A program made the position numbers and the translations under genes. 64,000 bases of DNA, taken from NCBI GenBank assembly GCA_937901225.1, contig CALCGX010000127.1, positions 12,643 through 76,642 on the forward strand, written 5' to 3'. This DNA is from an uncultured Bacteroidales bacterium. Lineage in GTDB: Bacteria > Bacteroidota > Bacteroidia > Bacteroidales > Paludibacteraceae. A model generated the notes under the pieces. That model did not search any database. It was not told the DNA's origin and saw only the letters and a list, made by a program, of their open reading frames with translations. Position 1 is the first letter of the stretch, and each line of letters starts with the position of its first letter. Shown one piece after another: positions 5,799 to 58,488 of this stretch.

Positions 5799-5932
5799 TT
5801 AACTATGCCTTTGCTAAGTTATACTTCAAATTTCAATGGTTGATTTCTGGCCAAAAGCAATCTTTTTTATTTCGCAATAATGTCATAAGAATAGGCGAAA
5901 TAATTACAAAATTTTATTTTTTTTCGAAAACG

Positions 5933-5964
5933 TTTGCAGGATTCAAAAAAAAACACTACCTTTG
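5933..5964 (+). promoter_or_regulatory. Bacteroidota sigma-A promoter for 6030..7502
   Basis: TTTG (5933-5936), a 20-nt spacer with A9, then TACCTTTG (5957-5964). About 85 percent identical to the promoter at 54472-54503. Confidence 0.6.
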
Positions 5965-6029
5965 TTGCCGATTTATGGATTTTGACTAACAAAAACACAA
6001 TCTTTTATATTAACTTAAAATTAGAAAAC

Positions 6030-42600: not shown

Positions 42601-42948
42601 GTGACTAATTCGTATTCTCATACAGCCCAAATCATGGATACACCTGGCATGATGCACCATGCAGGGTATGTGTTTAAGGATCCATGTACGGGTTGGAATT
42701 CGTTTACTGCTTCAGGTACTGGCAGCTTTGCTGCTATTTCGGCTGAGGTAGGTGGTAGTGTTTGTACCCAGGAAAACCTGTTTGGTGGTCCTGTGAAAGT
42801 GAATGGAATGGTATATGCAGCTCGTCCTGATAGACCACCAATAGGACAGGAGATGCCAGTAGGAGGTATGCTGTTGCCGATGTTGGTGATGGTGTGTGCA
42901 TATGTGTTGGTAAAAGTGGTTAAACGTAAGAAATCTCAAGCCTTATGA
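42601..42948 (+). CDS. small tail-anchored hypothetical protein (start GTG 42601 or ATG 42634)
   Basis: No N-terminal signal peptide. C-terminus MPVGGMLLPMLVMVCAYVLVKVVKRKKSQAL. The stop overlaps the start of the giant gene (ATGA at 42945-42948). Confidence 0.5.
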   Translation: MTNSYSHTAQIMDTPGMMHHAGYVFKDPCTGWNSFTASGTGSFAAISAEVGGSVCTQENLFGGPVKVNGMVYAARPDRPPIGQEMPVGGMLLPMLVMVCAYVLVKVVKRKKSQAL

Positions 42949-45900
42949 AAAGATTTTTTCTCTTAGTATATATTTGTCTGAGTTGTCTGATTGCGCAAGC
43001 GCAGGTGACAGATGGTGTGTTTGTGAGCGGAGATATCGTATCGTTTAGTTATGATAGCGACCCATGGGTGCAATATGATTTTCGTTTGTATTTGGAGGCA
43101 AGTAGTGACGGTGTGCGTGCTCCACGGGTGATATCGGATGACTGCTTGTGGCGGATGCGTATTGATCAGAATGGTTCGTCTTACTATTATAGTTTTCAGA
43201 ATTTGACTACAGGATATTGGTTGAGTGTGGATAACTCAAGTCCACAGGGGGCGACAAATGTAGGTGCTCTGACTTTGGTTCCCGATAGTTCTGCAGCAGC
43301 GGCTTTTCGCTTCGGAAATATGGTGGATTCGCAGAAGGGGTCCTATTGGTTGGGTGAGATTTACTACATGGCCACAATGCACTGGGGGCAAGTGCTACCA
43401 TTGTATGTGACTTTGGATTTTACGGTTGCGAACTGGAGTCCTTATACGATTCATGTGGAGAAATGGGAGCGAAAAGGTACAGGTGATGCGTGGGCGCACT
43501 TCAACCCAGCGAAGATAGAGTTTACCTACGATGATGTGTTGGAGCGTGATGTGCGCTTTGTGATTGAGCATACCACAGAGACGTATTACCAGATAGTAAG
43601 ACGTCCTAATGAAGAGCCGCTACTTCGACGCACATCCATTGAGGTGGACCCAAATCAAGTGAAAGAGGTGCATGTGTATTGGGAGTCAACGGGTGCGAAT
43701 AAGAGCAAAGAGACATGGCTCAATCCAGCAAACTTCTCGTTTAACTATCCTAATCTCCAATATACTTGCCCAGATACATCGCGTGTGATGATGAGGCTGG
43801 GTGAGGTGGAAGAGATTAAAGCGGCTGACGGACATAAGCAATGGCAGTTTCCTTTGGCACCAGTAGGAGAGAGTCCGATGGATTTGAAGGGTATTATCTA
43901 TCCCGAATTGGATAGTCAAGGCAACCAGTTGGGTATCTTGACTTGGATAGACTATTCGGATAATGTGGTGGTGGAGTATAAATACGGCAACCAGAGCTTC
44001 AGCAAGAAGATGCGCGTGGTTCGTAAGTCGTATCACAAAGAGGAGTTGAATCCAATCTCGGTGTCGATAAATCCAGTGACCTATACCTTCCGTGAGGTGG
44101 CTGAGGCAAAAGACTTTGTGGTAAATGTGCAGCATCAACATGGTTCTGTGATTTACAATGTGGATGGTCAAGAGATTGTTCGTGAGGCAGAAGGCGAAGT
44201 AGAAATAATATCCTTGAATGATGCGCATTGGACATTTAGCTTCGAGAATGGTTGGGAAGGGCTTAGTTGTGAAGTGCTGGACGATGGTAAAACGATTCGA
44301 GTGAGTACACCAGAGAATGAAAGTAATAGTAAGCGTACTGCGACATTGGTAGGAACATATTCCAATCAAACTGATGCTGAGCATAAACACGCAGGTGAGT
44401 TCCGTATTCCAATCGCTCAGCGTGTGGAAGCAGGTGGTATACAATTCGAGACGCAAGCAGGTGCAGGTCATACAGGAGCATGGACGGCAGGGCAAGAGCA
44501 GTTGACACATACCTCGGAGCGTACCATATACTATTTGCCTAACCAGGAGATAGAACTCCGTTTGGCAGAGTCGGGGTACTCGGGCTATATGCGCTGGTAT
44601 GACTATGAGACCAAGGGGGATCCCTATTATAACCATGTAGAGGGCTATTTGTCCACTTCATGGATTCGTTCGCCTCGTTCGGCGGACGGCACACCATTTG
44701 CTGCTATCAATACGCCACAGAGTGCAGAAACGATTCAAGATGAAGGTATATCGTATGGATTGTATTCTTTCAACAGAAATAACGACCGATATGGCGCTCA
44801 GACCGCAGGTACAGATGCTAACTATGGTGGTGTGCTGAATGAAAACAATACTGGTAACGCCGCTCCAATCCTCAAGGGATGGGATTATACGTATAATGCG
44901 AGCGCAAGCACGGCTGAGGCTAAAGCAGCTTCGGGCTATCATACGATGGCGTGTGATGTAAGTGCATATACCGATTATGAATATACTTTGCATAATGGTC
45001 AGATCACTTCGATAACAGAGCCAACGCTATCTTATCGCCAAATCTTCCATCTTAAGCCAGCTGAAGAGATGGCGGATACACTGCAAGCGCGAACGGGCAG
45101 AGGTGAGTATTTGGAAACGTATAAATATCAGGCTCCATCGGGTAAACAGATCCTTTTGTCCACTGAGCATCGCTATGTCCAATACCGTTCGCATTTGTCT
45201 GAGATGTGCTATTTCTATCGCGATGGTAGTGACCAAGTGCAACGTATTCCAGCATCAGCATTCTCATGGACAAGAGAGGTGTGGGATAATCAAACTAAGG
45301 ACTATCTACTTGCACAGGGATATACCCCTACATATACCGCTGAACTTGACTATCTGATAGTTAGAAGTGATAATTACACCATGGGCGAGCAGCAAGTGAA
45401 GCATAGGTATCGTTTGACAGCAGCACCAGCCGACTCAGAGCCATTGCTGATAGCTGAGTTTGAGGTGGAGTTTGTGGATGTGGAGAAATGTGGTCCAACG
45501 ACACAAACAATCATCACTCAAGCCCGTATTGAAAATGAATATGAGGTGTTGAGTAGCATTAATTTTGATGACAACAACGATACGCATTTGCCATGGGGAC
45601 AGATATCGTATGGATATGTGTATGCAACGGGTGAATTGGCACAAGAAGCTAATTTCCGCCGTGGTGCAACGCAAGGTGCGTTCCCATTCTATGGTGAATA
45701 CACGATATTGTCTTCCGTGAACAAAGATTGGGCTATGGCATCGGCTCATTCGGGTAAGGCATTGTATGTGGATGGTACCATGGAACCAGGTTTGGTGGCC
45801 AGTCTTACCACGGGTAAGCCTATTTGTTCGGGTCAAACGATGTATTGCTCGGCATGGTTCTGCAACCCTGCACCGGCTAACTGGTCAGGCCAAGGTAACC

Positions 45901-48900
45901 CAATCTTCCGCTTTAATGTTCAAGGAAAGAATAAGGGAGAAGCAGATTGGCAGAATGTAGGCGTGTATTTTGTGGGCGAGTTGCTCAAAGGTAGGGGTTG
46001 GCAGCAGATTAACTTCCCGATTGAATCGGCGAGTGGCTATGACTCTACGCGCGTATCGATTTATAACTTTGCGACTACCAACCAAGGTAACGACTTTATG
46101 GTGGACGATATTACTCTATATGTATCGCAGTTGCCAATGGCGGCTTACCATGGTAAGATGACCTGTCGCTCGACGAATAATGGTGTCAGCAGTGCAGCAG
46201 CCGTGTTGCGATTGGATTATAGCAATATGGAGGTAGGTTCGGATGCGTATATCTATTATCAGATTTACAATGAGACAGCAGACAAAGCATTGAATCCAAC
46301 CTATCAAGAGGGAGATGAAACGCTACCTATCTACTACCATGACTATGATCATGAACATGGTAATCTGGCAACCAATCACGCCTATGGTTCGATACACATT
46401 CCTGATGCTAATTATGTGCCTTCGGAGAGTAGGGGAGATATTATCTATTACTCGGTGGCCAAGATGCTGGATGAGATGGGTGATGCGGTACATAAGAAGG
46501 CCTATGTGAAGACGGTGAATAATGGTGTGGAAAAATGGCTGTTGTATGTGGCGCATATCATCGAAAATACCGAAGAGCCTGATGAGGCGTTGAATAAGTT
46601 ATATGCTGGTGATAGCTATTGGATGCGTATGGCATATTCGGTGGATGAGTTGGACGAGGACAACTGTAACATGCAAACACCATTGCATGCTACGCAACAG
46701 ACTAAGTTTGATCTCCGCAATTCGGATGGCGGTCTGGTGGATGAGGAGTTTGACTTGGAATCGGCAGGCAATTGCGCCAATGACATGTATTATCTGACGG
46801 TGGCAGTGAAAAATACCTTTGCAGATGAGGTGGGTGGTGCGCTCAAGGATAAGAAGGTACCTATCTATGCGGATTGGTTGGTAACTGTGGAGTCGGATGA
46901 TGTATATGGTGATAAAGAGGCTACATTGGAGCAACAATTGGCAGCGGATGAGGCATTTAAAGCGTTGTATAAGTACACGCATGGACAAGTGACTGCGGCT
47001 ATCATGTACGATATGAGACGTCCATCTACGGCTGATGATCCTAATCCAAACTATTATGCTACTCGCTTTGAGGATTTGAAGGTGGATGCATTTGAGTCAA
47101 GACAAAACTATGATATCGTGAAGCATCTCCATGATAATGGTTGGTTGCAGTTCTATGATACAACGGCTCATTTCTATCTTGGAGCAAATGATACTGCGCG
47201 CTACTGGTGCTTCCCTATTGAGGGTACTGCTACCATGACGGTGAACTATCAGGGTAAGGACACTTTGGTGGTGCTCAAAGATTGTAATGAGCCACGTTGG
47301 GTGAAAGTGACTTCTGCAGAAGCTAGTCGCTTCTTGAATATCTTACCAATCGCATCTGAACATATAACGGAGCAACAAAGAACAGAACTTCCTGTTTATA
47401 AGATTGTTATTGGTGATACGTCTGCCATCAAAATCCCTGTTACTGACATGGGTGGAGATACCAAGATTGCTAATTGTGAGATAGTAGAAGAAAATGGTAA
47501 AAAATACTTTACTCTCAATACAGATGCCATCAGTTTTGTTAACCCTGAAACAGGAGAAGTGTTGCCTGTTGATCCTAGCAAAACGGTTGAAGCAGGTAGA
47601 GAATACATCGCACGTTTGCAGTTGACTACAGGTGCCGATGGCGTGGATTATGAAGGATGCAAAGTGGGATATATCTTCATCAAAATACAAGTGTTGCCAC
47701 AAACAGTGGTATGGCGCCCAGGTACAAGCACCATCAACGGTTGGGGCTTGAACGAAAACTGGAAAAGTTGGGAGGATACCAATGGCAATAAGCAGGTGGA
47801 TGATGGAGATACGTTTGGAGTAGGATATGTGCCAATGGCTGGTGTAGATGTGATTATCCCTAAGATGGATAATGAGTTGCGCTATCCATACATTGTGCCC
47901 GATAATGAGCACTTGGATGACCCAGAATCGGATCACAAGCACAATCACTACCCAATGACCATCAATCATGATGTGCATAAATGTCGCAATATCTACTTTG
48001 CTTCGGGGGCACGCATCAACAACCAACATCTGTTGGAGTATGAGAAGGCGTTTGTGGATATGCAGCTGACTTCTACTAAGTGGAATATGATGTCTGCACC
48101 GCTGAAAGATATGTATACAGGTGATATGTTTATTCCTCATACAGGCGACTATATATCAGGGTCCGCAATGGAGAGCGATAATCCGTTTGAGGTGTCATCC
48201 TTCCAGGGTACACGTGCTGGGGATGCGGCATACGCATTCTGGTTGTCATTCTATAATAAGGATATTGTTACCCGTTATGAGGGTGGAAAAGATGTAACAG
48301 AAACAGCCACTGCTGAGTTCTGCGAGTCGAACTCGTTGATTCAACCATTGGAGGTAGGACAAGGTTTCCAACTCTTGGGCTTTGGTCCTGGAGATAGTAT
48401 GGAAGATATGATTGTTCGTTTGCCTAAGCCAGATGAGCGTTATTCGTATTTCAGCCCTTCGGGTTATGAAACTTCTTCTGTGGTGGTTCCTTCGCGAGAG
48501 GAGGCATATCGTTTGGCATTTACTCCAACCGATAACACGATGCAAATTACCTTGACGAATGGGGTGGAGAGCAATGCTTTTGTATTTGGTAATCCTACGT
48601 TGTCGTATATTGATATGCGTGCACTATTGGCTGATAATGAGCAGTTTAGTTCAGAGTTCTATTATATGCAGAACGACTCATGGCAGTCGGCTACGGTGGA
48701 AGTGGCAGCCACATCTTCGGATCGATACTTGCCTCCGATGCGTTCGGTAATGCTCAAGTTGCGCGATGGGGCAACGGCGACTACTGCCCAAGTAGTATTA
48801 AGTACCGATCATTTGACGCTGAATAACTCGCTGAAGTCAAAGGTGGCACCTGTGATGCGTGCACCTCAGCGCGATGTAATGCAAGAGGCTGAGGTGATGA

Positions 48901-49607
48901 CGATCTATGCTTTTGCTGCGGGCAATTATGCACGCTGTATGTTGGCTACACATGCTGAGGCGAATGATTATTATTTGCAGGGCGAGGATGCATTGTTCTT
49001 GTCGTCGGGTGTGGAAGTGACGGTGAAGGATAATTCGGCAGTATCTCCGCTGAACCTCTATACGGTGGCAGAGCAAGTGCCGATGATGACCGATCTGCGT
49101 CAAGGAGTTAGTGAAATACCATTGGCAGTTTTGGCAAATGCAGATGCAAGGGATGAGCATATGCAATTGGCATTCTATCTCTCTGAAAACTGGACTAAGG
49201 AGTGCTATCTTTGGGATACCATGACGGGCGCAAAATACCGAATCCTCAATGGCTTGATGTTGCAATTACCGATGTCGGAGAACCATGAGCAACGCTATGT
49301 GATTGTAGGTCCAGATACCTATGTGGGAGAAGGCAATGATGGTGGTGTGGCTACATCTACTATGAGTGCACTTCCAGCCGATGGCCAATTACATGCTTAT
49401 TCACATGCTGCGGGGATGTTGACGGTGGCATCTAACCAGTTGATAAAATCGGTGGTGGTATATGATATGCTCGGACGTGTATTGCTGGAGCATGATATGA
49501 ATCTGTGGAATAACGAAGTGACTTTACCAGTACCTTCGGGTATGTGTGTGGTGGAAGCTTATTTGAGTAATCAAACAACGCTTCATCAGCCAGCCATGGT
49601 GAAGTAA
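42945..49607 (+). CDS. giant (2220 aa) surface/adhesin-like T9SS cargo protein
   Basis: Signal peptide ending AQAQ. Jelly-roll/CBM-like block NQGNDFMVDDITLYV. C-terminal sorting domain VVVYDMLGRVLLEH...HQPAMVK. Confidence 0.85.
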   Translation: MKRFFLLVYICLSCLIAQAQVTDGVFVSGDIVSFSYDSDPWVQYDFRLYLEASSDGVRAPRVISDDCLWRMRIDQNGSSYYYSFQNLTTGYWLSVDNSSPQGATNVGALTLVPDSSAAAAFRFGNMVDSQKGSYWLGEIYYMATMHWGQVLPLYVTLDFTVANWSPYTIHVEKWERKGTGDAWAHFNPAKIEFTYDDVLERDVRFVIEHTTETYYQIVRRPNEEPLLRRTSIEVDPNQVKEVHVYWESTGANKSKETWLNPANFSFNYPNLQYTCPDTSRVMMRLGEVEEIKAADGHKQWQFPLAPVGESPMDLKGIIYPELDSQGNQLGILTWIDYSDNVVVEYKYGNQSFSKKMRVVRKSYHKEELNPISVSINPVTYTFREVAEAKDFVVNVQHQHGSVIYNVDGQEIVREAEGEVEIISLNDAHWTFSFENGWEGLSCEVLDDGKTIRVSTPENESNSKRTATLVGTYSNQTDAEHKHAGEFRIPIAQRVEAGGIQFETQAGAGHTGAWTAGQEQLTHTSERTIYYLPNQEIELRLAESGYSGYMRWYDYETKGDPYYNHVEGYLSTSWIRSPRSADGTPFAAINTPQSAETIQDEGISYGLYSFNRNNDRYGAQTAGTDANYGGVLNENNTGNAAPILKGWDYTYNASASTAEAKAASGYHTMACDVSAYTDYEYTLHNGQITSITEPTLSYRQIFHLKPAEEMADTLQARTGRGEYLETYKYQAPSGKQILLSTEHRYVQYRSHLSEMCYFYRDGSDQVQRIPASAFSWTREVWDNQTKDYLLAQGYTPTYTAELDYLIVRSDNYTMGEQQVKHRYRLTAAPADSEPLLIAEFEVEFVDVEKCGPTTQTIITQARIENEYEVLSSINFDDNNDTHLPWGQISYGYVYATGELAQEANFRRGATQGAFPFYGEYTILSSVNKDWAMASAHSGKALYVDGTMEPGLVASLTTGKPICSGQTMYCSAWFCNPAPANWSGQGNPIFRFNVQGKNKGEADWQNVGVYFVGELLKGRGWQQINFPIESASGYDSTRVSIYNFATTNQGNDFMVDDITLYVSQLPMAAYHGKMTCRSTNNGVSSAAAVLRLDYSNMEVGSDAYIYYQIYNETADKALNPTYQEGDETLPIYYHDYDHEHGNLATNHAYGSIHIPDANYVPSESRGDIIYYSVAKMLDEMGDAVHKKAYVKTVNNGVEKWLLYVAHIIENTEEPDEALNKLYAGDSYWMRMAYSVDELDEDNCNMQTPLHATQQTKFDLRNSDGGLVDEEFDLESAGNCANDMYYLTVAVKNTFADEVGGALKDKKVPIYADWLVTVESDDVYGDKEATLEQQLAADEAFKALYKYTHGQVTAAIMYDMRRPSTADDPNPNYYATRFEDLKVDAFESRQNYDIVKHLHDNGWLQFYDTTAHFYLGANDTARYWCFPIEGTATMTVNYQGKDTLVVLKDCNEPRWVKVTSAEASRFLNILPIASEHITEQQRTELPVYKIVIGDTSAIKIPVTDMGGDTKIANCEIVEENGKKYFTLNTDAISFVNPETGEVLPVDPSKTVEAGREYIARLQLTTGADGVDYEGCKVGYIFIKIQVLPQTVVWRPGTSTINGWGLNENWKSWEDTNGNKQVDDGDTFGVGYVPMAGVDVIIPKMDNELRYPYIVPDNEHLDDPESDHKHNHYPMTINHDVHKCRNIYFASGARINNQHLLEYEKAFVDMQLTSTKWNMMSAPLKDMYTGDMFIPHTGDYISGSAMESDNPFEVSSFQGTRAGDAAYAFWLSFYNKDIVTRYEGGKDVTETATAEFCESNSLIQPLEVGQGFQLLGFGPGDSMEDMIVRLPKPDERYSYFSPSGYETSSVVVPSREEAYRLAFTPTDNTMQITLTNGVESNAFVFGNPTLSYIDMRALLADNEQFSSEFYYMQNDSWQSATVEVAATSSDRYLPPMRSVMLKLRDGATATTAQVVLSTDHLTLNNSLKSKVAPVMRAPQRDVMQEAEVMTIYAFAAGNYARCMLATHAEANDYYLQGEDALFLSSGVEVTVKDNSAVSPLNLYTVAEQVPMMTDLRQGVSEIPLAVLANADARDEHMQLAFYLSENWTKECYLWDTMTGAKYRILNGLMLQLPMSENHEQRYVIVGPDTYVGEGNDGGVATSTMSALPADGQLHAYSHAAGMLTVASNQLIKSVVVYDMLGRVLLEHDMNLWNNEVTLPVPSGMCVVEAYLSNQTTLHQPAMVK

Positions 49608-49633: not shown

Positions 49634-49675
49634 TGCCGAGGAACACCAGAAAAAGATGTTCTTCGGCATTTTTTA
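49634..49675 (+). terminator. intrinsic terminator
   Basis: A 12-bp stem, tgccgaggaaca / tgttcttcggca (one G-U pair), plus T6. Confidence 0.65.
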
Positions 49676-49695: not shown

Positions 49696-49727
49696 GTTGT
49701 GAGTTTCATTATTTTTGACTAACTTTG
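49696..49727 (+). promoter_or_regulatory. candidate sigma-A promoter for 49781..54342
   Basis: TAACTTTG at 49720-49727. The -33 region is imperfect (GTTG/TTGT). Confidence 0.35.
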
Positions 49728-49780: not shown

Positions 49781-50608
49781 ATGAAAAAAGTCTATCTTTT
49801 TTTGGCGTTGGCTATCCCAATGATGGCAAGCGCACAGTTGTTGGAGGTGGCTTCTACTGAGCGCGTTGCTGCGAATGCAGATGCGAAGGTGGCAGCATTC
49901 AGCCCTAATGGCGACTATCTCCTCCTGACAAACACCAGTAACCAAGGTTTACAACGCATGGATTTGGCTACCCAGAAGGTAACCAAAATCACCAGTGCAG
50001 ATGGCGCAGGTTACAATGTGAAGATTGCTCAAGACGGCAATCAAATCATTTATCGTGAGGTAACTCTCGATGCTACTAAGAGCCGCGTGAGCAACATTAT
50101 TCGCCACGATTTGGCTGCTAACAAGGCACAAGTGGTAGCAAAGCAACAATCACATCTTGCTGCTATGGTGGCTGATGTGAATCGTCCTTCTTTCTCAGTT
50201 CAAGACCGTCAATTGATGATGACCAAGAACGGCAAGACTATTGTTTTCTCTCCTAATGGTCAACAATACAGCTACCACTGGGCATCTCTTTCTCCTAACG
50301 GTAAGAAAGTGGCTTACTACATCAGCGCAGTAGGTTGCTTCGTATGCGACATTGATGGCAAGAATATCCAATTCATCGGTCACAACTGCCTCGCTCCAGT
50401 ATGGTATAATGACAATATTATCCTTGGTTGTGATGCTAAGGACAATGGCGAAGTGGTTTTGGAATCTGCAATCGTAGCTTACAGCTTGGACGGCAAGAAA
50501 CAAGTGCTGACCAATGGCGAGCAGATTGCTGTGTTCCCACAAGCAGCTGAGGGCAAGATTGCTTACTCTACCTCAGAAGGTGAAATCTATGTTATGAATA
50601 TTAAATGA
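49781..50608 (+). CDS. secreted TolB-like beta-propeller-blade protein (split-off homolog of the N-terminus of 9533..13303)
   Basis: Signal peptide. WASLSPNGKKVAYYISAVGCFVCDIDGKNIQFIGH aligns with FWASVSPDEKHLVYVTARYGTFVCDINGENVRSMG of the fused protein. The stop overlaps the next start (ATGA). Confidence 0.8.
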   Translation: MKKVYLFLALAIPMMASAQLLEVASTERVAANADAKVAAFSPNGDYLLLTNTSNQGLQRMDLATQKVTKITSADGAGYNVKIAQDGNQIIYREVTLDATKSRVSNIIRHDLAANKAQVVAKQQSHLAAMVADVNRPSFSVQDRQLMMTKNGKTIVFSPNGQQYSYHWASLSPNGKKVAYYISAVGCFVCDIDGKNIQFIGHNCLAPVWYNDNIILGCDAKDNGEVVLESAIVAYSLDGKKQVLTNGEQIAVFPQAAEGKIAYSTSEGEIYVMNIK

Positions 50609-53600
50609 TGCATACTACTATGAAAAAGACATTATTGATTATGGCAGCATGCGTAGTTAGCATCGCCATGTTTGCAACTGACTTGACAGGCAAACGTATT
50701 TATATCAACCCAGGTCACGGTAGTTGGGGTCCTAACGACCGTCCTAATGCTACTATCCCTTATCCTAACTTGGCATCTACTGGCATGCCTGATACTTGCG
50801 GTTTCTACGAGACCAACACCAACCTGTGGAAGTGTCTTGAATTGCGCGACCGCTTGGAGGCAGCCGGTGCTTTTGTGATGATGTCACACACACAAGGTGG
50901 TCCTTGGCCATACGAGAAAGTGGATGGCGAATATCCAGACTACACCTATGAGCACTATAAGAATTTGCCTGATTATGAGAAATACAATCGTCCATTGTTG
51001 GATATCGCTGATGAGGCTGAGGCAAACAATATGGACTACTTCATTTCTGTACACTCTAATGCGGCAACTGATGGTAATACCGTTAACTATTTGTCTTACT
51101 TCTATCGTGGTCAAACTGATGGTACACACGTAGTTCCAGGTGCTGTTGACATGTGTAAGGCTTCTTGGTATCATGCTTTTGAGTGCCGCTCTATGGACGG
51201 TCTTGAGCCAAACAACTACGACACCCGTGATCCAGAGACTTCTAAGCACATCTTGGCTGATATGAACTTCTATGGAAGTAGTTATGATGCTACTCTTCCT
51301 TCTTCTGGTAAGACTTATACTGGTTACCTCGGCGTATTGCACCATGGTGTTCCTGGTTTCCTCGTAGAGGGTTACTTCCATACCTATCAACCAGCTCGTC
51401 ACCGTGCGTTGAACCCTGACTATTGCAAGCAAGAGGGTATTCGCTACTATCGTGGTATTGTGGATTACTTCAAGGCTGAGCCAGAGACCAAGGGTTATAT
51501 CTTGGGTACAGTAAAGGATGAGCACAATGCCTTCGTACACGAGCTCTACAAGTATGCTCCTAACACCAATGACCAATACAAGCCATTGAACGGTGCTGTG
51601 GTTACATTGAGCAAAGAGAGCGGCGAAGTGGTGGCTACCTATCAAGTAGATAGTTGCTACAATGGTTTGTTCTACTTCCCTGACCTTGAGCCAGGTACTT
51701 ACAAGTTGGATGCAACAATGGATGGTTACAAACCATTGCACCGCAAATACCAAACCGTAGTCGTTGAGGCAAATGCTACCAGTTATCCATTCCTCTTCTT
51801 GGAGGATACTGCTCATATTGATCTCACTGGTCTCTATGAAGATTATCCAAATCCAGAGCAACCTGCTTATGCAGCATTGCCAGCGCAATTCAACATGAAG
51901 CAAAATGACCCTAAAGACAATACCGCTAAGATCAAGGGTACTATCAAACGTACTATCCAACACGCTGACTCTGTATTCTACCTCACACACGAGGAGGATG
52001 GTACAGCGCATATCTACGTGCTCAACAATACTACTGGCGCATTGGATACCATCTCTACCGTAGGTATCGTTCCAGTTGATCCAACCAACCCTGGTGATCA
52101 CTTGGCACTCTCTGATATCGCTATCACTTGCGATGGTAAATTGGTAGGTGTTAACTATGTTCGCTGCTACTATGGTGCTAGTTACGTAGAGTCTGGCTAC
52201 AAAGAAGGTACTTCTCGTTTCTATATTTGGGATGACTTCTTTGCAGATCCTGCACTATGGTTTACAAGCCAATTCACTAGCAACTCATTAAAGTCTGACC
52301 AAGGTTATACCATGGCTCTCTATGGTATGTCCACCAACTGCCATATCATCACCACTGGTGTTCACCGCTATGGTAATGGTGCTCGCTACAGCGTTTATAA
52401 CGTAGTAAATGATATGGTAGCTAGCGAAACATACTATGGCTGGGAACTTGGTGCAGGTTCAGATGAAGAAGCTGAATTTGACGAGTTGTACGATGGTACA
52501 GATTTCCGTCTTACTCTTTCTCCACGTGGCGAGAAGACCAACCTCATTATGGATGCAGAGAAAATGGCTCCAGTAGAGTTTACATTCCCAGAGGCTTCTA
52601 ACCTACCACTCGTTGTTTTTGGTGGTATAGATTCTACCCTCATTGGTACCAAGTTCCAAGGCGCATCATACTTCATGTACGCAGGTCGCAGCATGATGGT
52701 TACTCCATTCCAAAACGCTGAAGGCTTTGTAGCTGGTCTTAAGCTCTTTGACATCACCGACGGTATGGACAATGCTGTAGAGGTGAAATTGGATTACGGT
52801 TTCTTTGAGCCTTACGGAGCTCCTACCGCTCACGCAAGTGCAGGTGCATATGTGGATGGTGCAGTGCTTAACCTCTATCTCTATGTAGATGGTTTGGTAT
52901 GGTCATTCACAACTGTTGGCGTTCAACAACCTATCGTTGAGCGTATGAACGCATTGAACCTCAAGGTTGCTAAAACCGAATTCGACTACATCTTCTCATT
53001 CGTAGCAAACCAAGATGCTCCATACGCAGCTATCCTCTTCTACGATGAGAACAAAGAGGTGGTTGAGCAAATTGACATCGAAGCTACTAAGGGCGAGAAC
53101 CAAGTACGCGTTGCTGTTGACATGCTTCCATCTGAGGCTAAAACTTGGGGTATTACCCTCACAGGTACTCCTGTTCCTGGTATGGGCCTTGTTGCAGATC
53201 ACGTAGATTCTACTATGCTCAAACCATATGCTATCGTTAATAGTCATCCTCTCACCGACCAATTCGGTCAACTCTATGTGATGGAAGGCACAGGTGATAA
53301 CAAGGGTGTATCTATCTACGACATCAATATGAACAAGCTCAACACTACTCCATATGTATCTACCGATGCTGCATGGAATGCTCCTAAGCGTTTGGCAATT
53401 GCATCTGACGGTACATTGTTCATCGCAGAGTATAGCGACGATCATAGTGGTGTATATGTGATGGATCCTGCTCAACCTGAGAATATTACCCAATTCTTTG
53501 TTGGTGAGCGTGATGGTAATGGTGTTATTTCTAATGGTGGCGTTAACGTAGGTGCTTCTACCGCAGGTATCTCTATCTACAAAGAGGGTGCAGAGTCTAA

Positions 53601-54342
53601 ACTCGTCGTTTACAACGAGGACTTTGGTGCTTCTTTGGGTAATATCTTGATCTACAATATCGGTCAAGAGGACGGTTCTATCGTTAAGACTTGGGAAGGT
53701 GCTCCTTCTGAGGTTTATGGTAAGGGCAGCAACTTGGCTGGTCTTGTTAACAAGAACGGTCAACCTATTCTCACTGACTACGGATTCTTCGTTTCTACTC
53801 TCCGTTATGCAGGTGGTAACAATAGCTACGCTACTTCTTGCCGCTACTACAACTTTGATCAAGAGTGCGAATTCTCTACTCACTACGATCAATATGTAGG
53901 TTATGTCAATGGTAGCAACGATGGTGCTTTGGCTCTCAGCAACGATCAAAAGTACCTCGTATTGCCAGACGATAACAACCAATTCGTAGTATTTGAGTGC
54001 GCATGGGATGAAGAGGGTAAACTTAGCGTGAAGTATGTAGAGTCATTTGTTCACAACCTTGGCCCTGTTTACCAATTGAGCTTCGACTACGCAGGTAACT
54101 TGATCGCTTCTGCAGCAGGTCACGTAGCTCGCTACACCATGCCAACAGCTGATAACACCATCGTTATTCCAGCTAAGACTGCGTTGGCAGATGCTCCTGA
54201 GTACGATCCAACAGCTGTAGAAAATGTGAAACCTGCTGTTCTTGATCGCAATGCTCCTATGTATGACATACTTGGTCGCCAAGTGGATAAGACATATCGC
54301 GGTATTGTTATCCAAAACGGACAAGCATATCTCGTGCGTTGA
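50605..54342 (+). CDS. multidomain secreted protein: Amidase_3, CarboxypepD_reg-like, module X, module Y, T9SS-like tail
   Basis: Amidase signature at about 50690-51420: NPGHGSWG, FYETNTNL, FISVHSNAAT, PGFLVEGYFH. FYFPDLEPGTYKLDA block. Tail PMYDILGRQVDKTYRGIVIQNGQAYLVR. Confidence 0.85.
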   Translation: MMHTTMKKTLLIMAACVVSIAMFATDLTGKRIYINPGHGSWGPNDRPNATIPYPNLASTGMPDTCGFYETNTNLWKCLELRDRLEAAGAFVMMSHTQGGPWPYEKVDGEYPDYTYEHYKNLPDYEKYNRPLLDIADEAEANNMDYFISVHSNAATDGNTVNYLSYFYRGQTDGTHVVPGAVDMCKASWYHAFECRSMDGLEPNNYDTRDPETSKHILADMNFYGSSYDATLPSSGKTYTGYLGVLHHGVPGFLVEGYFHTYQPARHRALNPDYCKQEGIRYYRGIVDYFKAEPETKGYILGTVKDEHNAFVHELYKYAPNTNDQYKPLNGAVVTLSKESGEVVATYQVDSCYNGLFYFPDLEPGTYKLDATMDGYKPLHRKYQTVVVEANATSYPFLFLEDTAHIDLTGLYEDYPNPEQPAYAALPAQFNMKQNDPKDNTAKIKGTIKRTIQHADSVFYLTHEEDGTAHIYVLNNTTGALDTISTVGIVPVDPTNPGDHLALSDIAITCDGKLVGVNYVRCYYGASYVESGYKEGTSRFYIWDDFFADPALWFTSQFTSNSLKSDQGYTMALYGMSTNCHIITTGVHRYGNGARYSVYNVVNDMVASETYYGWELGAGSDEEAEFDELYDGTDFRLTLSPRGEKTNLIMDAEKMAPVEFTFPEASNLPLVVFGGIDSTLIGTKFQGASYFMYAGRSMMVTPFQNAEGFVAGLKLFDITDGMDNAVEVKLDYGFFEPYGAPTAHASAGAYVDGAVLNLYLYVDGLVWSFTTVGVQQPIVERMNALNLKVAKTEFDYIFSFVANQDAPYAAILFYDENKEVVEQIDIEATKGENQVRVAVDMLPSEAKTWGITLTGTPVPGMGLVADHVDSTMLKPYAIVNSHPLTDQFGQLYVMEGTGDNKGVSIYDINMNKLNTTPYVSTDAAWNAPKRLAIASDGTLFIAEYSDDHSGVYVMDPAQPENITQFFVGERDGNGVISNGGVNVGASTAGISIYKEGAESKLVVYNEDFGASLGNILIYNIGQEDGSIVKTWEGAPSEVYGKGSNLAGLVNKNGQPILTDYGFFVSTLRYAGGNNSYATSCRYYNFDQECEFSTHYDQYVGYVNGSNDGALALSNDQKYLVLPDDNNQFVVFECAWDEEGKLSVKYVESFVHNLGPVYQLSFDYAGNLIASAAGHVARYTMPTADNTIVIPAKTALADAPEYDPTAVENVKPAVLDRNAPMYDILGRQVDKTYRGIVIQNGQAYLVR

Positions 54343-54375
54343 TACTAATTGAGCAAGTGCTCATATATAATAATT

Positions 54376-54410
54376 CCAAGGAACGAGTCATCCTCGTTCC
54401 TTGGTTTTTT
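54376..54410 (+). terminator. intrinsic terminator
   Basis: A 12-bp perfect stem, ccaaggaacgag / ctcgttccttgg, plus T6. Confidence 0.75.
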
Positions 54411-54471
54411 GTCTATATCCCTTAGTAACATTTCTAAAAGTTCAATAAAAATTAAACTTTTTCCGAAAACG

Positions 54472-54503
54472 TTTGCAGGTATCAAAAAAAAGTTGTACCT
54501 TTG
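54472..54503 (+). promoter_or_regulatory. sigma-A promoter for 54567..58430
   Basis: TTTG (54472-54475), a 20-nt spacer with A8, then TACCTTTG (54496-54503). Homologous to 5933-5964. Confidence 0.6.
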
Positions 54504-54566
54504 TCGCCGTGTTATGTAGATAACAAGCTAATAAACAATAATTATTAACCTTAAATTCATTACAAC

Positions 54567-57500
54567 ATGAAAAAACTTTTACTATCTCTCCTTGCTCTTG
54601 TAGCAATGATTGGTACAATCAGCGCGCAACGCGCTTGGGCGTACGATTTGGGGTTGGGCTATGCTTCCGATACCTACACATTCTCTTTCAAAGCAACTAC
54701 AGCTGCTAATGCGACCCTTATCTTTACGGATGCTGAGGGTACTGAGTTGGCAACACATGATGCTGGTGCTGTTGTTGCAGGTGCTAATACTGTTTCTTTG
54801 CCCAAAGCTCAACTTCCAGAAGGTGACGCTATTTATTGGGCAGTAAAATTAACAGGTGAAGCAATCGCAAATTTAGTAGAAGTTACTGATGCTTCTAAAG
54901 GTATTTACAGCTTCTACTTGCCACAAGGTGTAGCCGTTGACAACAATCCAGAGTCTTCTACTTTTGGTAATATTTACGTAGCTCAATCAACTAACGGTGC
55001 ATCTGATGGTGGTTCTACCCGTGCTGATAACCAAAAACAAGGTATCTTTATTTATGATCAAACATTGGCAGAACTCAATCCTACATCAAATGTAGGTATC
55101 ATTCCAAGCAATGTGACTTTATCTTCTACCACTGATCGTCAAGCGATGAAGCGTATCGTTATCAATCCTGTAACCAACGAAGTTGCATTTATTCACAACT
55201 TGGATCCGGTGGCAATCTGGGCAGTACCTGCTAACAACGTAGGGGGCGAGGCTAAGAACCTTATTGATGGTCTTGGATTTACAGCTGCCAATGCTGCTTG
55301 CTTCGGTGAGGATGGTTCTTTGTATGTATTAGTATCTCCTGGTTATCCAGCTCCAGGTTCACTCTACAAGATAACTGATGGTGTAGTAGATACATTGTTT
55401 GCTAATTATGGAAAATTTGGTAATGCAGACGTAGCTTTGGCTTCTGATGGTCGTGGTGGTGTTTGGATAGCTCAAAACCGTGGTCAATTAGACGGATTCA
55501 ACCAACTTACCCACGTTAATGCTGCTGGTGAGATAGACTTCGAAGTAAACTCTACTACCCCTAACGGCATTGAAAGTGCTAATACTGCTCGTGGTACTAT
55601 GGCTTACAATCCTAATGAAGATGTACTCGCTTTGGGTATTGGTGCTACAAATACCATTGGTGCATCTCTTTATAAGGTGACATATGATGCAGAGACTGGT
55701 GTTCCCTCGTTGGCATTCTTGGCAAAGACTCCTTCTTTGGGTAAGAACGTGGATGGTCTTGCATTTGACTACGCTGGTGACCTTTATGGTTTGTCCGCAA
55801 ATAAAGAGCGTTTCTATAAATATGCTGTTCCTACCAACAACAACGTTTGCAGAACTCCTGCCCCTAAAGCACAGGTGATTGTAAACTCTTCTTCTGTAGT
55901 GACCTACACCATTAATGCAACTGCAAATGATGACAAGATGGGTACCGTGACAGGTGGTGGTGTGTATCTAAAAGATGCAGAAGTTATTTTAACAGCAACT
56001 CCTGCTGATGGTCATACTTTTGTTAAGTGGAGCAACGAGTCCACCGAAAACCCATTGATATTTACTGCTATTGAAGACCTTACAATTTCTGCAATCTTCG
56101 AAGTTCTTTCTTATACCGTTACTCTTTCTGCTAATGATGCAACTAAAGGTACTGTTGAAGGTACTGGCACTTATGAATATGGTACAGAAGTAACTCTCTC
56201 TGCAACTCCTGCTGATGGTTATGAATTTGTTGATTGGAGCAATGGAAGCAAGGAGAATCCTTTGACAATTACCGTAAAAGAAGATACCGAACTTACCGCA
56301 AACTTCCGCGCTGTGATGGCTTCCTCTATCACTTTGAATGCTCTGCCTGTACAAGACTATAGCGCAAGCATCGTAGGTACTATCAAACGTGCTGTTCAAA
56401 ACGGTGAGAACACCATCGTTCTTTCACACGAAGTAGATGGCACTCCTCACATCTACAACGTAGCTCATGCTACACAAACCGTTACTGAACTTTCTCAAGA
56501 AGGTGTAAATGCTGCGGCTGATGGTTTCCTCGCTATCTCCGATATTGCAGTTACCGAAGATGGTAAATTAGTGGCTTGTAACTATGTACATTGCACATTT
56601 ACCCCTTCAAATACTTCTTATTTCTATATTTGGAATGATTTAGCAGCAGCTCCATCTGTATGGTTTACTTCTCAAAAGTCAGGTAATTACAACGATGCGT
56701 ATATGGGATATACCATGGCGTTGAAAGGCACCTCTCAAAATGCTGAAGTAACAATCTCAGCGTTTAATAAGAGCAATAGTAATACTCGTTATTCACACCT
56801 TTATGTGGTGGATGGTACTTACAGTGATGCAAGTTATAAGTATAGTCGAGACAATGCGGCATTACATCCTAATACATTAGGAAAGAATACTTATGAGTTG
56901 AACGCATCTCCACTTGCTGCTGGCAAATGGATTGTTGATGGCGAATTGAATTCTCCTATTGAATTTGTAGAGAAAAACGCAGTAGCTATTGATACTTATA
57001 CTGCACTTAATTCAAATGTTCTCGGTAAGAAATACAATGGTGCTTATTATCTCAAGAACTACAACGACCACCATTTCATGATTGCCCCATATGCTAACGA
57101 GGAGGGACTGCTTGCTGGTGTGAAAGTGATTGGTATCACAGATGGTTTTGCTGCACCAACCGTACTAGCTTCTAATACTGACCTTGATATTGCTGTAGAG
57201 GCAACCACTGCTTCTGCAACGGCTGTAGTTGATGCAGAAGGCAATTTGACTATCCACCTCTTTGCGGATGCACGAGTATATACCTTTACAGAGAAAGCGG
57301 TTGATCCTACTCCTCCAGAAGTAGAACTTGTAGGTGTTGTTAAACGTGCACTCACCATTGGCGAAAGCACCGTTGTTCTCACTCACGAGGCTAATGGTAC
57401 TCCTCATATCTACAATATCGTAGGCGAAGAAATCGCAGAGATTTCTCAAGAAGGCGTTATCGCTCGCGATCCTGAGAACCCAGGCGATCATCTTGCAATC

Positions 57501-58430
57501 TCTGATATCGCTGTTACTGAGGATGGCAAACTTGTAGCTGTCAACTATGTACGTTGCTATAATGCTCCTGCTTATGTAGAGAGTGGATACAAAGAGGGTA
57601 CTACTCGCTTCTATATGTGGGATGCGCTTACTGCAGATCCAACTATTTGGTTTACATCACAATACACCTCTAATTCACTCAAATCTGATCAAGGTTACAC
57701 CATGGCACTCAATGGTTCTTCTACCGATTGCCAAATCATCATCACGGGTGTTCACCGTTATGGCAATGGTGCACGCTTTAGCAACTTCAAGGTGGTGGAT
57801 GGTGCTTTGTCTAGCACATCATACTTCGGTTGGTCACTTGGTTTAGGTTCAAATGAAGAGGCTGTGTTTGATGAGGCTTTAGATGGTACTAACTTCCAAC
57901 TCTCAGTATCTCCTCGCAATAATGCAGACTTTATCATGGATGCAGAGAAGATGGCTCCAGTAGAGTGGCAAATACCTGCTACCTCTAAAGAAGATCCTAT
58001 CGTTCTTGGCGAATTGGATGCAGCACTTGTTGGCGTGAAATTCAATGGTGTTACTTATCTTACCGTAGGCGCACAAACTATCATGGTAGCGCCTTATGCT
58101 GACGCAGAAGGCAAACTCGCAGGTGTTAAGGTGCTTGACATCACCGCAGGTCTTGATAAGGCTACTGAGCTCAAAGTAGCTAACTTAGACGCTGCTGTTG
58201 AGGCTACCGCTGCTGCTACTGCTGTGGCTGTTGCAGACAACGTGCTCACCATTACCCTCGTAGCTGATGCTACTCTCCATGTACTTGAGGTGGAACTTGA
58301 GAAGGGGCCTGCTACCGCTCTTGAGAACATCGCTGTTGAGGGTAAAGCAATCAAGATGATTAAGAACGGTCAATTGATCATTATCAAGAACGGCATTCAA
58401 TACAACGTTCAAGGTGCGGTTGTAAAATAA
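54567..58430 (+). CDS. multidomain secreted protein: module Y, two InlB-B-repeat-like (Listeria-Bacteroides repeat) domains, two tandem copies of module X, T9SS-like tail
   Basis: Signal peptide. The N-terminus is paralogous to 6030..7502. Repeats ...GTVTGGGVYLKDAEVILTATPADGHTFVKWSN and ...GTVEGTGTYEYGTEVTLSATPADGYEFVDWSN. Module X copies at about 56320-57280 and 57320-58290. Tail IKMIKNGQLIIIKNGIQYNVQGAVVK. Confidence 0.85.
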   Translation: MKKLLLSLLALVAMIGTISAQRAWAYDLGLGYASDTYTFSFKATTAANATLIFTDAEGTELATHDAGAVVAGANTVSLPKAQLPEGDAIYWAVKLTGEAIANLVEVTDASKGIYSFYLPQGVAVDNNPESSTFGNIYVAQSTNGASDGGSTRADNQKQGIFIYDQTLAELNPTSNVGIIPSNVTLSSTTDRQAMKRIVINPVTNEVAFIHNLDPVAIWAVPANNVGGEAKNLIDGLGFTAANAACFGEDGSLYVLVSPGYPAPGSLYKITDGVVDTLFANYGKFGNADVALASDGRGGVWIAQNRGQLDGFNQLTHVNAAGEIDFEVNSTTPNGIESANTARGTMAYNPNEDVLALGIGATNTIGASLYKVTYDAETGVPSLAFLAKTPSLGKNVDGLAFDYAGDLYGLSANKERFYKYAVPTNNNVCRTPAPKAQVIVNSSSVVTYTINATANDDKMGTVTGGGVYLKDAEVILTATPADGHTFVKWSNESTENPLIFTAIEDLTISAIFEVLSYTVTLSANDATKGTVEGTGTYEYGTEVTLSATPADGYEFVDWSNGSKENPLTITVKEDTELTANFRAVMASSITLNALPVQDYSASIVGTIKRAVQNGENTIVLSHEVDGTPHIYNVAHATQTVTELSQEGVNAAADGFLAISDIAVTEDGKLVACNYVHCTFTPSNTSYFYIWNDLAAAPSVWFTSQKSGNYNDAYMGYTMALKGTSQNAEVTISAFNKSNSNTRYSHLYVVDGTYSDASYKYSRDNAALHPNTLGKNTYELNASPLAAGKWIVDGELNSPIEFVEKNAVAIDTYTALNSNVLGKKYNGAYYLKNYNDHHFMIAPYANEEGLLAGVKVIGITDGFAAPTVLASNTDLDIAVEATTASATAVVDAEGNLTIHLFADARVYTFTEKAVDPTPPEVELVGVVKRALTIGESTVVLTHEANGTPHIYNIVGEEIAEISQEGVIARDPENPGDHLAISDIAVTEDGKLVAVNYVRCYNAPAYVESGYKEGTTRFYMWDALTADPTIWFTSQYTSNSLKSDQGYTMALNGSSTDCQIIITGVHRYGNGARFSNFKVVDGALSSTSYFGWSLGLGSNEEAVFDEALDGTNFQLSVSPRNNADFIMDAEKMAPVEWQIPATSKEDPIVLGELDAALVGVKFNGVTYLTVGAQTIMVAPYADAEGKLAGVKVLDITAGLDKATELKVANLDAAVEATAAATAVAVADNVLTITLVADATLHVLEVELEKGPATALENIAVEGKAIKMIKNGQLIIIKNGIQYNVQGAVVK

Positions 58431-58458: not shown

Positions 58459-58488
58459 AAGAGAGTGCCACACGGCACTCTCTTTTTT
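58459..58488 (+). terminator. intrinsic terminator
   Basis: An 11-bp perfect stem, aagagagtgcc / ggcactctctt, plus a T-run. Confidence 0.75.

Follow-up and report, generated by a model that had tools for sequence, protein, structure and literature searches.

Two paralogous loci of an uncultured gut Paludibacteraceae bacterium combine putative peptidoglycan amidases with shuffled, predicted β-propeller modules

Results

Two related loci in the window

The DNA studied here is a 64-kb stretch (the window) of contig CALCGX010000127.1 from an uncultured gut bacterium of the family Paludibacteraceae. It contains two groups of genes, locus A and locus B, all on the plus strand, and in both of them a large putative zinc amidase is encoded near a protein that shares one of its non-catalytic modules, here called module Y. 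Locus A consists of A1 (6030-7502), a stand-alone module Y of subfamily alpha with a signal peptide, A2 (7576-9504), a GHL10-domain protein with a short C-terminal tail of type 1, and A3 (9533-13303), an amidase with a signal peptide that belongs to a polysaccharide utilisation locus (PUL). Locus B consists of B1 (49781-50608), a PD40-type propeller of 275 aa and about six blades encoded by a gene of its own, B2 (50605-54342, or from an alternative start at 50620), an amidase of the non-PUL type, and B3 (54567-58430), an amidase-less protein. The open reading frames of A1, A3, B1, B2 and B3 were checked, and their coordinates agree with those of a preliminary description of this DNA. Locus A is 98% identical to a segment of contig JBGUSG010000012.1 of the metagenome-assembled genome (MAG) fecal_MAG_99, and locus B is about 92-95% identical to another place on the same contig.

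The preliminary description had proposed, on the basis of similarities seen by eye, that locus B repeats the parts of locus A in rearranged form, and that module Y makes up A1, the N-terminus of B3 and the C-terminal parts of A3 and B2. When the window proteins were compared by BLASTP, A1 matched residues 1-471 of B3 (35% identity, E 2e-74), residues 855-1203 of A3 (27%, E 1e-22) and B2 (26%, E 8e-12). The two amidases, A3 and B2, were collinear over about 1,250 aa, nearly their full length (27%, E 4e-72), and residues 21-99 of A3 matched residues 137-216 of B1 (40%, E 9e-18). A hidden Markov model (HMM) trained solely on module Y homologues from other DNA than the window matched all four proteins: A1 with E 7e-209, B3 (1-467) with E 3e-176, A3 (837-1204) with E 1e-42 and B2 (779-1210) with E 2e-27. 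Overall, profiles of non-window homologues returned E values of 1e-27 to 1e-209 for the claimed similarities. Chance or low-complexity similarity can be ruled out, since the non-window profiles recovered every copy of module Y and of a further module, X, whose HMM was likewise independent of the window copies. Thus all of the similarities noticed by eye are significant by both methods and, judged by these alignments, loci A and B are paralogous and domain-shuffled.

For comparison with other genomes, a locus scan was made with one genome per species, in which loci (referred to by L numbers) were annotated with the window's own domains. Counts of domain architectures refer to the best 145 family representatives.

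Modules Y and X

In the AlphaFold2 (AF2) model of A1 (predicted local distance difference test, pLDDT, 86.8) an immunoglobulin (Ig)-like sandwich (~6102-6332) is followed by a six-bladed NHL-type β-propeller (~6387-7349). The top Foldseek matches of the Y model were the teneurin NHL domain, Pizza6, the Mei-P26 NHL domain and DFPase, all with probability 1.00; TolB, BT_3476 (3tc9) and BACOVA_00264 (4hw6) were also matched, the last two being described as 'auxiliary nutrient binding proteins' of Bacteroides PULs. A1 had no Pfam or NCBIfam match at E<=0.01, including the models for NHL and other propellers. As modelled, module Y is a six-bladed NHL-type β-propeller fold. BT_3476 and BACOVA_00264 have the same build of an N-terminal Ig-like domain and a six-bladed propeller and are likewise encoded in PULs. 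Unlike them, module Y carries a signal peptidase I (SPI) signal and a C-terminal tail instead of a lipoprotein anchor, and it is also found fused to an enzyme and expanded into giant multi-Y proteins; the likeness is at the level of the fold (template modelling score, TM, ~0.4).

The block NERFYK..PT.NN, which had been noticed at the end of all Y copies, corresponds to the last propeller strand and the linker that follows it. It is indeed a family feature: positions E422, K426, A428, P430, T431 and N434 are at least 90% conserved among 42 sequences. An exhaustive profile search placed 533 clusters (at 50% identity) in the Y family at E<=1e-30 and 978 at E<=1e-10. Three subfamilies separate in a rough neighbour-joining tree. 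Alpha includes A1, B3, the stand-alone Y genes of PULs and the terminal Y of fused amidases; beta consists of the Y modules inside PUL amidases, A3 included, and gamma of the first Y of non-PUL amidases, B2 included. Conserved motifs of Y-alpha, for example NNPES, are not retained in Y-beta and Y-gamma, which argues for a binding function and against a shared active site. The DUF4623 protein of the PUL (see below) was considered as a relative of Y and rejected (hhalign probability 1%).

The preliminary list of shared parts was incomplete, as it had overlooked a third common module, X. There is one copy of X in each amidase (A3 residues 521-759, nucleotides 11093-11809; B2 residues 437-765, nucleotides 51913-52899), and there are two copies in B3 (residues 586-905 and 919-1236; copy a, 56322-57281, and copy b, 57321-58274). 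Module X of B2 and that of B3 are 55% identical (BLASTP, E 2e-103), and the independent HMM gave E values of 1e-70 to 1e-96. The AF2 model of X is a generic propeller of about six blades; its pLDDT of 71.9 reflects a shallow alignment, because a word-index search with module X yielded only 11 proteins, mostly fragments. When X and Y were compared as possible diverged copies of one propeller, the profile-profile alignment covered the C-terminal tail only. By this comparison X is a second propeller, not detectably related to Y.

Amidase domains

In A3, half of a PD40 propeller (9590-9907) and a helical linker precede the Amidase_3 domain (10028-10732), which is followed by a CarboxypepD_reg domain (10838-11047), module X and a module Y of the beta subfamily (11876-13177). 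In B2 the order is Amidase_3 (50677-51504), CarboxypepD_reg (51574-51774), X and a gamma-type Y (52939-54234). The Pfam model Amidase_3 (PF01520; cutoff 27 bits) scored 48.5 bits with A3 and 32.1 bits with B2. That both amidases retain their catalytic signatures, as had been stated before, is borne out by the alignment: the H/E/H zinc ligands and the catalytic Glu (H18, E45, H122 and E202, numbered along the A3 domain segment, the first sequence of the alignment) are invariant in seven diverse members, and the motifs GHG, E(S/T)N.NL, S.HSNA and GFL.EG align with those of 8c0j (AmiA-like) and 7rag (CwlD). A single-sequence search of PDB with the amidase domain of B2 found no match; a profile was needed, and its best match was an AmiA-like chain. 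By family, A3 and B2 are putative zinc amidases cleaving the bond between N-acetylmuramic acid (MurNAc) and L-Ala. They belong to the same catalytic family as AmiA/B/C (with their activators), CwlD and LytH, with the same zinc ligands and Glu, and they too have a dedicated partner, encoded separately or fused. Unlike AmiA/B/C, however, the partner is a PD40 propeller rather than a LytM-domain protein, the genetic context is catabolic and export-oriented, and the profile match is distant (E ~1e-5).

Genes surrounding the amidase of locus A

On the minus strand, divergent from the locus A operon, lies a gene for a glycoside hydrolase family 20 (GH20) β-N-acetylhexosaminidase (3368-5611; Pfam Glyco_hydro_20, 1.8e-79) with a lipoprotein signal (N-terminus ...ITFASC); a GH20 gene adjoins the Y gene in about 14 loci. 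A3 is followed on the plus strand by genes for a SusC-like TonB-dependent transporter (13300-16539; Pfam Plug, TonB_dep_Rec and CarbopepD_reg_2), a SusD-like lipoprotein (16570-18351; Pfam SusD_RagB, 2.4e-30), a DUF4623 lipoprotein (18406-20181; Pfam), a hypothetical 292-aa protein (20264-21142), an exo-β-N-acetylmuramidase NamZ of family GH171 (21169-22353; Pfam) and a MurT-like sodium:solute symporter (SSF; 22402-23853; Pfam). A2 matched Pfam GHL10 with E 6.4e-64. The founder of the GHL10 family, Cwp19 of Clostridioides difficile, is a peptidoglycan lytic transglycosylase (PMC6016235); A2 shares its catalytic domain, but it lacks CWB2 repeats, ends in a type-1 tail and belongs to the PUL of a bacterium that is Gram-negative. 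NamZ is an exo-β-N-acetylmuramidase found mostly in Bacteroidetes (PMC8054146), and MurT of Tannerella forsythia is a MurNAc transporter of the sodium-symporter superfamily (PMC5790795) whose gene (Tanf_08375) adjoins namZ1 (Tanf_08370).

The stop codon of A3 overlaps the start codon of the SusC gene (ATGA, 13300-13303). A second species has this overlap in its PUL as well (L001, 18656-18659), pointing to translational coupling between an exported enzyme and an outer-membrane transporter. The order GH20 (minus strand), Y, GHL10, PD40half-AMI-X-Y(-Y) (AMI, amidase), SusC, SusD is conserved in about 14 loci. PUL-type loci, in which SusC and SusD directly follow the amidase in other species too, include species whose Y protein is just 37-44% identical to A1. 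As side observations, two bins labelled Acidaminococcaceae (L010, CAVEZM010000019.1) and Mycobacteriaceae (L029, CAVGOI010000019.1) carry a typical Bacteroidales SusC/SusD amidase locus; these contigs are most likely mis-binned.

Locus A has both hallmarks of a PUL, adjacent susC-like and susD-like genes and co-located degradative enzymes. The activities known in characterised relatives of the GH20, GHL10, Amidase_3 and NamZ proteins are all related to peptidoglycan and, therefore, every enzyme class for dismantling peptidoglycan is present around the SusC/SusD pair. From this gene content we consider it probable that locus A is a PUL for peptidoglycan utilisation (foraging), and such a context gives the non-amidase parts a likely role.

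The same enzymes might instead serve housekeeping remodelling of the cell's own wall, during turnover or the separation of daughter cells, B1 being an activator such as EnvC or NlpD are for AmiA/B/C and the propellers tethering the enzyme inside the envelope. Amidase_3 is the family of the cell-division amidases, an AmiA-like chain being the best profile match in PDB, the B1+B2 pair is widespread and conserved, and no canonical C-terminal domain (CTD) of the type IX secretion system (T9SS) was detected in the window proteins. We nevertheless regard this explanation as very unlikely. A3 is translationally coupled to SusC within a catabolic PUL with NamZ, GH20 and a MurT-like importer; the bona fide T9SS CTDs of the orthologues at L042 (see below) mean export past the outer membrane; and at least three amidase loci per genome, tandem duplicates and strain-level variation are atypical for division amidases.

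The PD40 partner of the amidases

B1 matched Pfam PD40 with 23.4 bits (cutoff 20.9). It is not a TolB orthologue: with TIGR02800 (TolB) the score was 20.7 bits against a cutoff of 343, the protein has 275 aa compared to the about 430 aa of a full-length TolB with its N-terminal alpha/beta domain and propeller, and there are no tol-pal genes nearby. In a profile search of PDB, about 60 residues matched TolB blades (E ~1e-3). The family has 1,085 homologous clusters, and the best 120 of these are all 261-275 aa long and 84-99% identical. B1 starts with an SPI signal but lacks a sorting tail at its C-terminus. In both contigs looked up, a B2-like amidase gene directly followed B1, and the arrangement was sometimes repeated in tandem, [B1][AMI][B1][AMI].

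According to the preliminary description, the stop codon of B1 overlaps the start codon of B2. The sequence ATGA is present at 50605-50608, but the start of B2 is ambiguous, ATG 50620 giving a canonical MKKTLL signal peptide and being favoured in relatives, whose B2 genes are called from this type of start, leaving an 11-nt gap after B1. The overlap is unambiguous only in L042, a PUL of the same kind in a more distant Bacteroidales, where a separate 281-aa B1-like gene ends in the ATGA at which the amidase gene begins.

The PD40 segment was found in three states. It is a separate gene in B1, L026, L042, L047 and L050. In A3 and 13 PUL orthologues from Paludibacteraceae it is fused to the amidase as a half, corresponding to C-terminal profile positions ~126-262 of 275, which sits right after the signal peptide and is followed by the helical linker. 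In nine other amidases of the same family it is absent. A segment that is a gene of its own in one case and part of a longer open reading frame with the same neighbour in the other is, as far as these alignments go, a fission/fusion pair. The relationship proposed in the preliminary description therefore stands, with the correction that the fused part is about half of B1 and not a single TolB-like blade. Because the outgroup L042 has the separate gene, the most economical reading is that PD40 was originally a separate upstream gene, which lost its N-terminal half when it was fused to the amidase in the PUL lineage; this direction follows from the outgroup.

Transcription units and variability of locus B

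A terminator-like hairpin with a 12-bp stem and a T run (54376-54404) separates B2 from B3, and another one follows B3 (58459-58484). For these predictions only the terminator output was used, as the sigma-70 promoter scan is uninformative for Bacteroidota. Upstream of B1 there is a motif, TAACTTTG, at 49720-49727. By eye, a further terminator-like hairpin (49636-49668; GCCGAGGAACA...TGTTCTTCGGC, then a T run) was seen after the 2,220-aa gene that precedes locus B; as it lies ahead of the B1 motif, B1-B2 would be a transcription unit separate from this upstream giant gene. The latter (BIG, 42945-49607) and a 1,598-aa protein (33203-37999) are giant exported proteins in which hardly any domain is annotated and whose C-termini resemble a T9SS CTD only weakly (E 0.005-0.015). 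Neither has X or Y matches, and both were rejected as members of the family. BIG is conserved upstream of B1 in the closest relative only and is absent from other B-type loci.

B3 is composed of a module Y of the alpha subfamily (54567-55967), two Flg_new_2 (InlB B-repeat) domains (~55905-56312) and the two X copies (see above). Its upstream region (54459-54509) is homologous to that of A1 (5920-5969). The latter reads TTTTTTTCGAAAACGTTTGCA, 20 nt, TACCTTTG, with the -33 TTTG at 5933-5936 and the -7 TAnnTTTG at 5957-5964; in front of B3, the -33 TTTG is at 54472-54475 and the -7 box, TACCTTTG, at 54496-54503. These boxes correspond to the Bacteroides promoter consensus (-33 TTTG / -7 TAnnTTTG). 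The upstream element was also recorded as TTTTTTTCGAAAACGTTTGCA, 20 nt, TACCTTTGTCGCCG, with the palindromic core AAACGTTT. A 15-mer of the promoter is exact at A1 and has one mismatch at B3 (54463-54477); three other matches in the window have three mismatches each and are within chance expectation. Furthermore, the element aligns with regions upstream of Y(-alpha) genes in other species, and the B3 promoter region matches the corresponding A1 upstream region in the close relatives L003 and L026 at 74% over ~170-200 nt. These similarities suggest that a shared element co-regulates A1 and B3, and it may be a common operator and promoter for both loci.

The preliminary description had treated the amidase protein and the amidase-less Y protein of locus B as the pair. 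The tight conserved unit is, however, B1+B2, while B3 lies behind a strong terminator and has its own promoter; the best explanation of these signals is that locus B comprises two transcription units, B1+B2 and B3. The two units also differ in variability. Window positions 54410-58037, covering most of B3, are 64-80% identical to or unalignable with positions 9732-13750 of L026, a locus from a MAG of the same species, whereas the flanks are 92-93% identical. The Y module of B3 is 83% identical to that of L011, from another species, but only 44% identical to its positional counterpart in L026. Since B3 is divergent amid conserved flanks, it behaves as an exchangeable cassette, replaced or hypervariable between near-identical strains, and B1+B2 as the stable unit.

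These features of locus B raise the alternative of interbacterial antagonism. The exported amidases would then be bacteriolysins acting mainly against Gram-positive neighbours, PD40 would be a periplasmic immunity or latency factor, comparable to the prodomain of a T9SS protease or to the immunity proteins that accompany type VI secretion system amidase effectors, and feeding via locus A would be a secondary benefit. A protein with a signal peptide and without a sorting tail, such as B1, would stay in the periplasm; B1 is tightly or translationally coupled to the amidase (ATGA in L042, an 11-nt gap or an overlap here), it is very conserved (84-99% identity across the best 120 clusters), and in the contigs examined the B2-like amidase always follows it. 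Moreover, the rapid turnover of B3 and further Y/X proteins from strain to strain is what one would expect of proteins involved in conflict or recognition. On the other hand, nine amidases of this family do without a PD40 partner, a partner fused to the exported enzyme would have to be cleaved off in order to remain in the cell and confer immunity, B1 is not similar to known inhibitors (its matches being the weak ones to TolB blades, E ~1e-3), and lysis of neighbours is purely hypothetical. We consider antagonism as the main function unlikely.

The family in other genomes

The scan found 44 module Y loci, almost all of them in Paludibacteraceae or unclassified Bacteroidales of animal guts. They are of three kinds: the PUL type, non-PUL amidase loci, and arrays of giant proteins made of Y alone or of Y and X. 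In other genomes, too, an amidase protein is paired with a Y protein that has no amidase, as the preliminary description had pointed out for loci A and B, and often the two are fused into one protein. Seven non-PUL loci (L014, L016, L019, L021 with a tandem pair, L022, L023 and L041) encode the amidase as one AMI-(X)-Y-Y chain of 1,530-2,070 aa, so that AMI-X-Y and an extra Y are on one polypeptide. Because the Y tree places B2 in gamma and B3 in alpha, the gene boundary between B2 and B3 corresponds to the gamma|alpha (Y|Y) junction inside these single proteins. By this correspondence, the B2|B3 boundary adds a second case of fission/fusion.

Amidase loci number at least three per genome (L003, L019 and L026 of one MAG). 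The third, L019 (JBGUSG010000011.1), encodes a 2,074-aa AMI-X-Y-Y-Y protein preceded by a Y-Y-Y giant, and tandem duplicates occur elsewhere, for example in L021 and L047 ([AMI-X-Y-Y]x2 or [B1][AMI]x2). The family is therefore multi-copy within each genome. Domain orders among the best 145 representatives include Y, Y-Y, Y-X, AMI-X-Y-Y, Y-Y-AMI-Y and B1-AMI-X-Y-Y; X was present in 36 of the 145. The earlier proposal of a duplicated and shuffled two-protein module thus holds as far as paralogy and domain shuffling are concerned, but the two loci are members of a large combinatorial family rather than a fixed pair duplicated once.

The composition of the family can also be read differently, X and Y building giant S-layer-like surface coats or adhesins to host or plant material, with the amidase an occasional passenger. 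The amidase is found in only 19 of the best 145 representatives, most of the others being Y-only or Y/X giants of 1,000-2,900 aa, the closest folds are teneurin-type NHL and lectin-like propellers, some members carry Flg_new_2 and BspA-type leucine-rich repeat domains, and B3 shows allele replacement. Yet every amidase of the family that was found has its own Y, and most also X; a stand-alone Y gene is fixed in the PUL of about 14 genomes; A1 and B3 share the conserved promoter element; and Y arrays adjoin NamZ-SSF genes in L032 and SSF genes in L024 and L035. We give the coat or adhesin reading little credence. The best explanation of the architectures is a lineage-specific family of combinatorially shuffled exported proteins of gut Paludibacteraceae and related Bacteroidales, whose parts would be a zinc Amidase_3, a prealbumin-like spacer, the unrelated propellers X and Y and a PD40 propeller partner.

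Signals for export and C-terminal tails

By inspection, SPI-type signals are present in A1, A3, B1, B3 and BIG, where they end in AQ, and an SPI signal was also seen in NamZ; SusD, DUF4623 and GH20 have lipoprotein signals. The N-terminal Sec signals expected of T9SS cargo are thus present, hydrophobic and ending in AQ or FA. No genes for the T9SS machinery were found within the 64-kb window.

The C-termini fall into two types. Type-1 tails (A1 7383-7499, A2 9418-9501 and B3 58284-58427) share a 25-aa sequence, K.i.NGQl.IiRdGk.YN..Gq.v, that aligns with the first half of the CTD. That of A2 matches positions 440-475 of the Y profile (E 6e-6), and at least 74 of the 145 family representatives have such a tail, which matches no Pfam or NCBIfam model. 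Type-2 tails (A3 13178-13300 and B2 54235-54339) are about 35 aa long and, in an alignment of C-termini, retain two CTD motifs. In L042, the orthologues of the amidase and the Y protein end in Por_Secre_tail domains (44.8 and 42.2 bits; cutoff 27). The type-1 tail, being common to otherwise unrelated Y proteins and a GHL10 enzyme, looks like a sorting or anchoring signal, and T9SS secretion of the window proteins is plausible from these alignments.

Discussion

Homology, domain architectures, conserved catalytic residues, synteny and fission/fusion states were read directly from the sequences; what is said about substrate, location, binding by X and Y and the part played by B1 is deduced from homology and context. 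In the mechanism that we envisage, A1 (Y), A2 (a lytic transglycosylase-like GHL10 protein) and A3 (amidase) would be exported and, outside the cell, would bind cell-wall debris, strip stem peptides and cut glycan strands. The SusD and DUF4623 lipoproteins would capture the fragments and SusC would import them. In the periplasm, NamZ and GH20 would trim the fragments, releasing MurNAc and N-acetylglucosamine (GlcNAc), and the MurT-like symporter would take up MurNAc. The X and Y propellers would be non-catalytic and serve substrate binding or scaffolding, in the manner of surface glycan-binding proteins. Locus B, as a paralogue of the non-PUL type, would contribute a second amidase with its coupled PD40 partner, plus the fast-evolving binding protein B3.

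Several observations weigh against this foraging model. Locus B has no SusC/SusD or glycosidase genes, and a foraging role there is extrapolated from locus A. The amidases are remote from characterised enzymes (profile E ~1e-5, no single-sequence match in PDB), propeller folds are generic (TM ~0.4-0.5 to everything) and do not point to a ligand, and the organism is known from MAGs alone, so that the function of all members is deduced. As 126 of the best 145 representatives have no amidase, X and Y may have a general surface role unrelated to peptidoglycan. Finally, the tails of A1, A2, A3, B2 and B3 did not match the T9SS CTD models (PF18962/TIGR04183) even at E<=10, nor any NCBIfam model; these short tails lack parts of the canonical CTD, which makes the export route and the final location uncertain.

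The enzyme logic is that of MurNAc scavenging by T. forsythia and Bacillus subtilis (NamZ, NagZ, AmiE, MurT/MurP; PMC8054146, 10.1101/2021.12.02.470905, PMC5790795), in which an amidase takes off the stem peptides, while MurNAc and GlcNAc are set free by exo-hexosaminidases, NamZ (GH171) among them. As in the namZ1-murT arrangement of T. forsythia, a gene of the sodium-symporter family lies next to namZ in locus A. Unlike these systems, locus A, known from its genes alone, has SusC/SusD, a GHL10 enzyme and apparently exported upstream enzymes, and its amidase is not of the AmiE type but a 1,250-aa protein of the Amidase_3 type with two propellers. A SusC/SusD pair with co-located degradative enzymes is likewise the canonical arrangement of PULs in Bacteroidota.

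The chitin utilisation locus of Flavobacterium johnsoniae, with its secreted ChiA, is a T9SS-dependent PUL. There too the first-acting enzyme is large, multidomain and CTD-exported rather than a lipoprotein, and in the present family the L042 orthologues carry Por_Secre_tail; it differs in that the substrate predicted here is peptidoglycan and that the tails in the window are 25-40-aa CTD remnants matching no model. PULs with murein genes and SusC/SusD loci for peptidoglycan have been noted bioinformatically before (PMC10199937). In the literature searched, in which some query words also matched unrelated terms, we found no characterised peptidoglycan PUL or T9SS-secreted amidase that would be directly comparable.

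The ingredients, Amidase_3, GHL10, NamZ, SusCD, CTD-type export and propeller binding modules, are all known. What is new is two unannotated propeller families and their combinatorial fusion with a peptidoglycan amidase, a PD40 partner in three states, and the truncated tails. We also entertained a more speculative possibility, to which we assign a low likelihood, namely that PD40, as B1 or as the half in A3, is a periplasmic latency or immunity factor, or that the tails are a minimal sorting signal derived from the T9SS CTD. If true, PD40 would represent a kind of amidase inhibitor or prodomain that has not been described before, by which exported amidases would be kept inactive on the producer's own wall until their exit.

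Peptidoglycan is an abundant, little-studied nutrient of the gut, and SusC/SusD loci for it have not been dissected in the literature searched. The family supplies a conserved candidate locus with every enzyme class for cell-wall breakdown, and X and Y, which have no Pfam match, could be new peptidoglycan-binding modules. The states of PD40 (separate, half-fused and absent), together with the Y|Y boundary, amount to a natural experiment that bears on the question of which parts have to work jointly. If the enzymes lyse neighbouring bacteria, the family would also be relevant to competition in rumen and hindgut communities.

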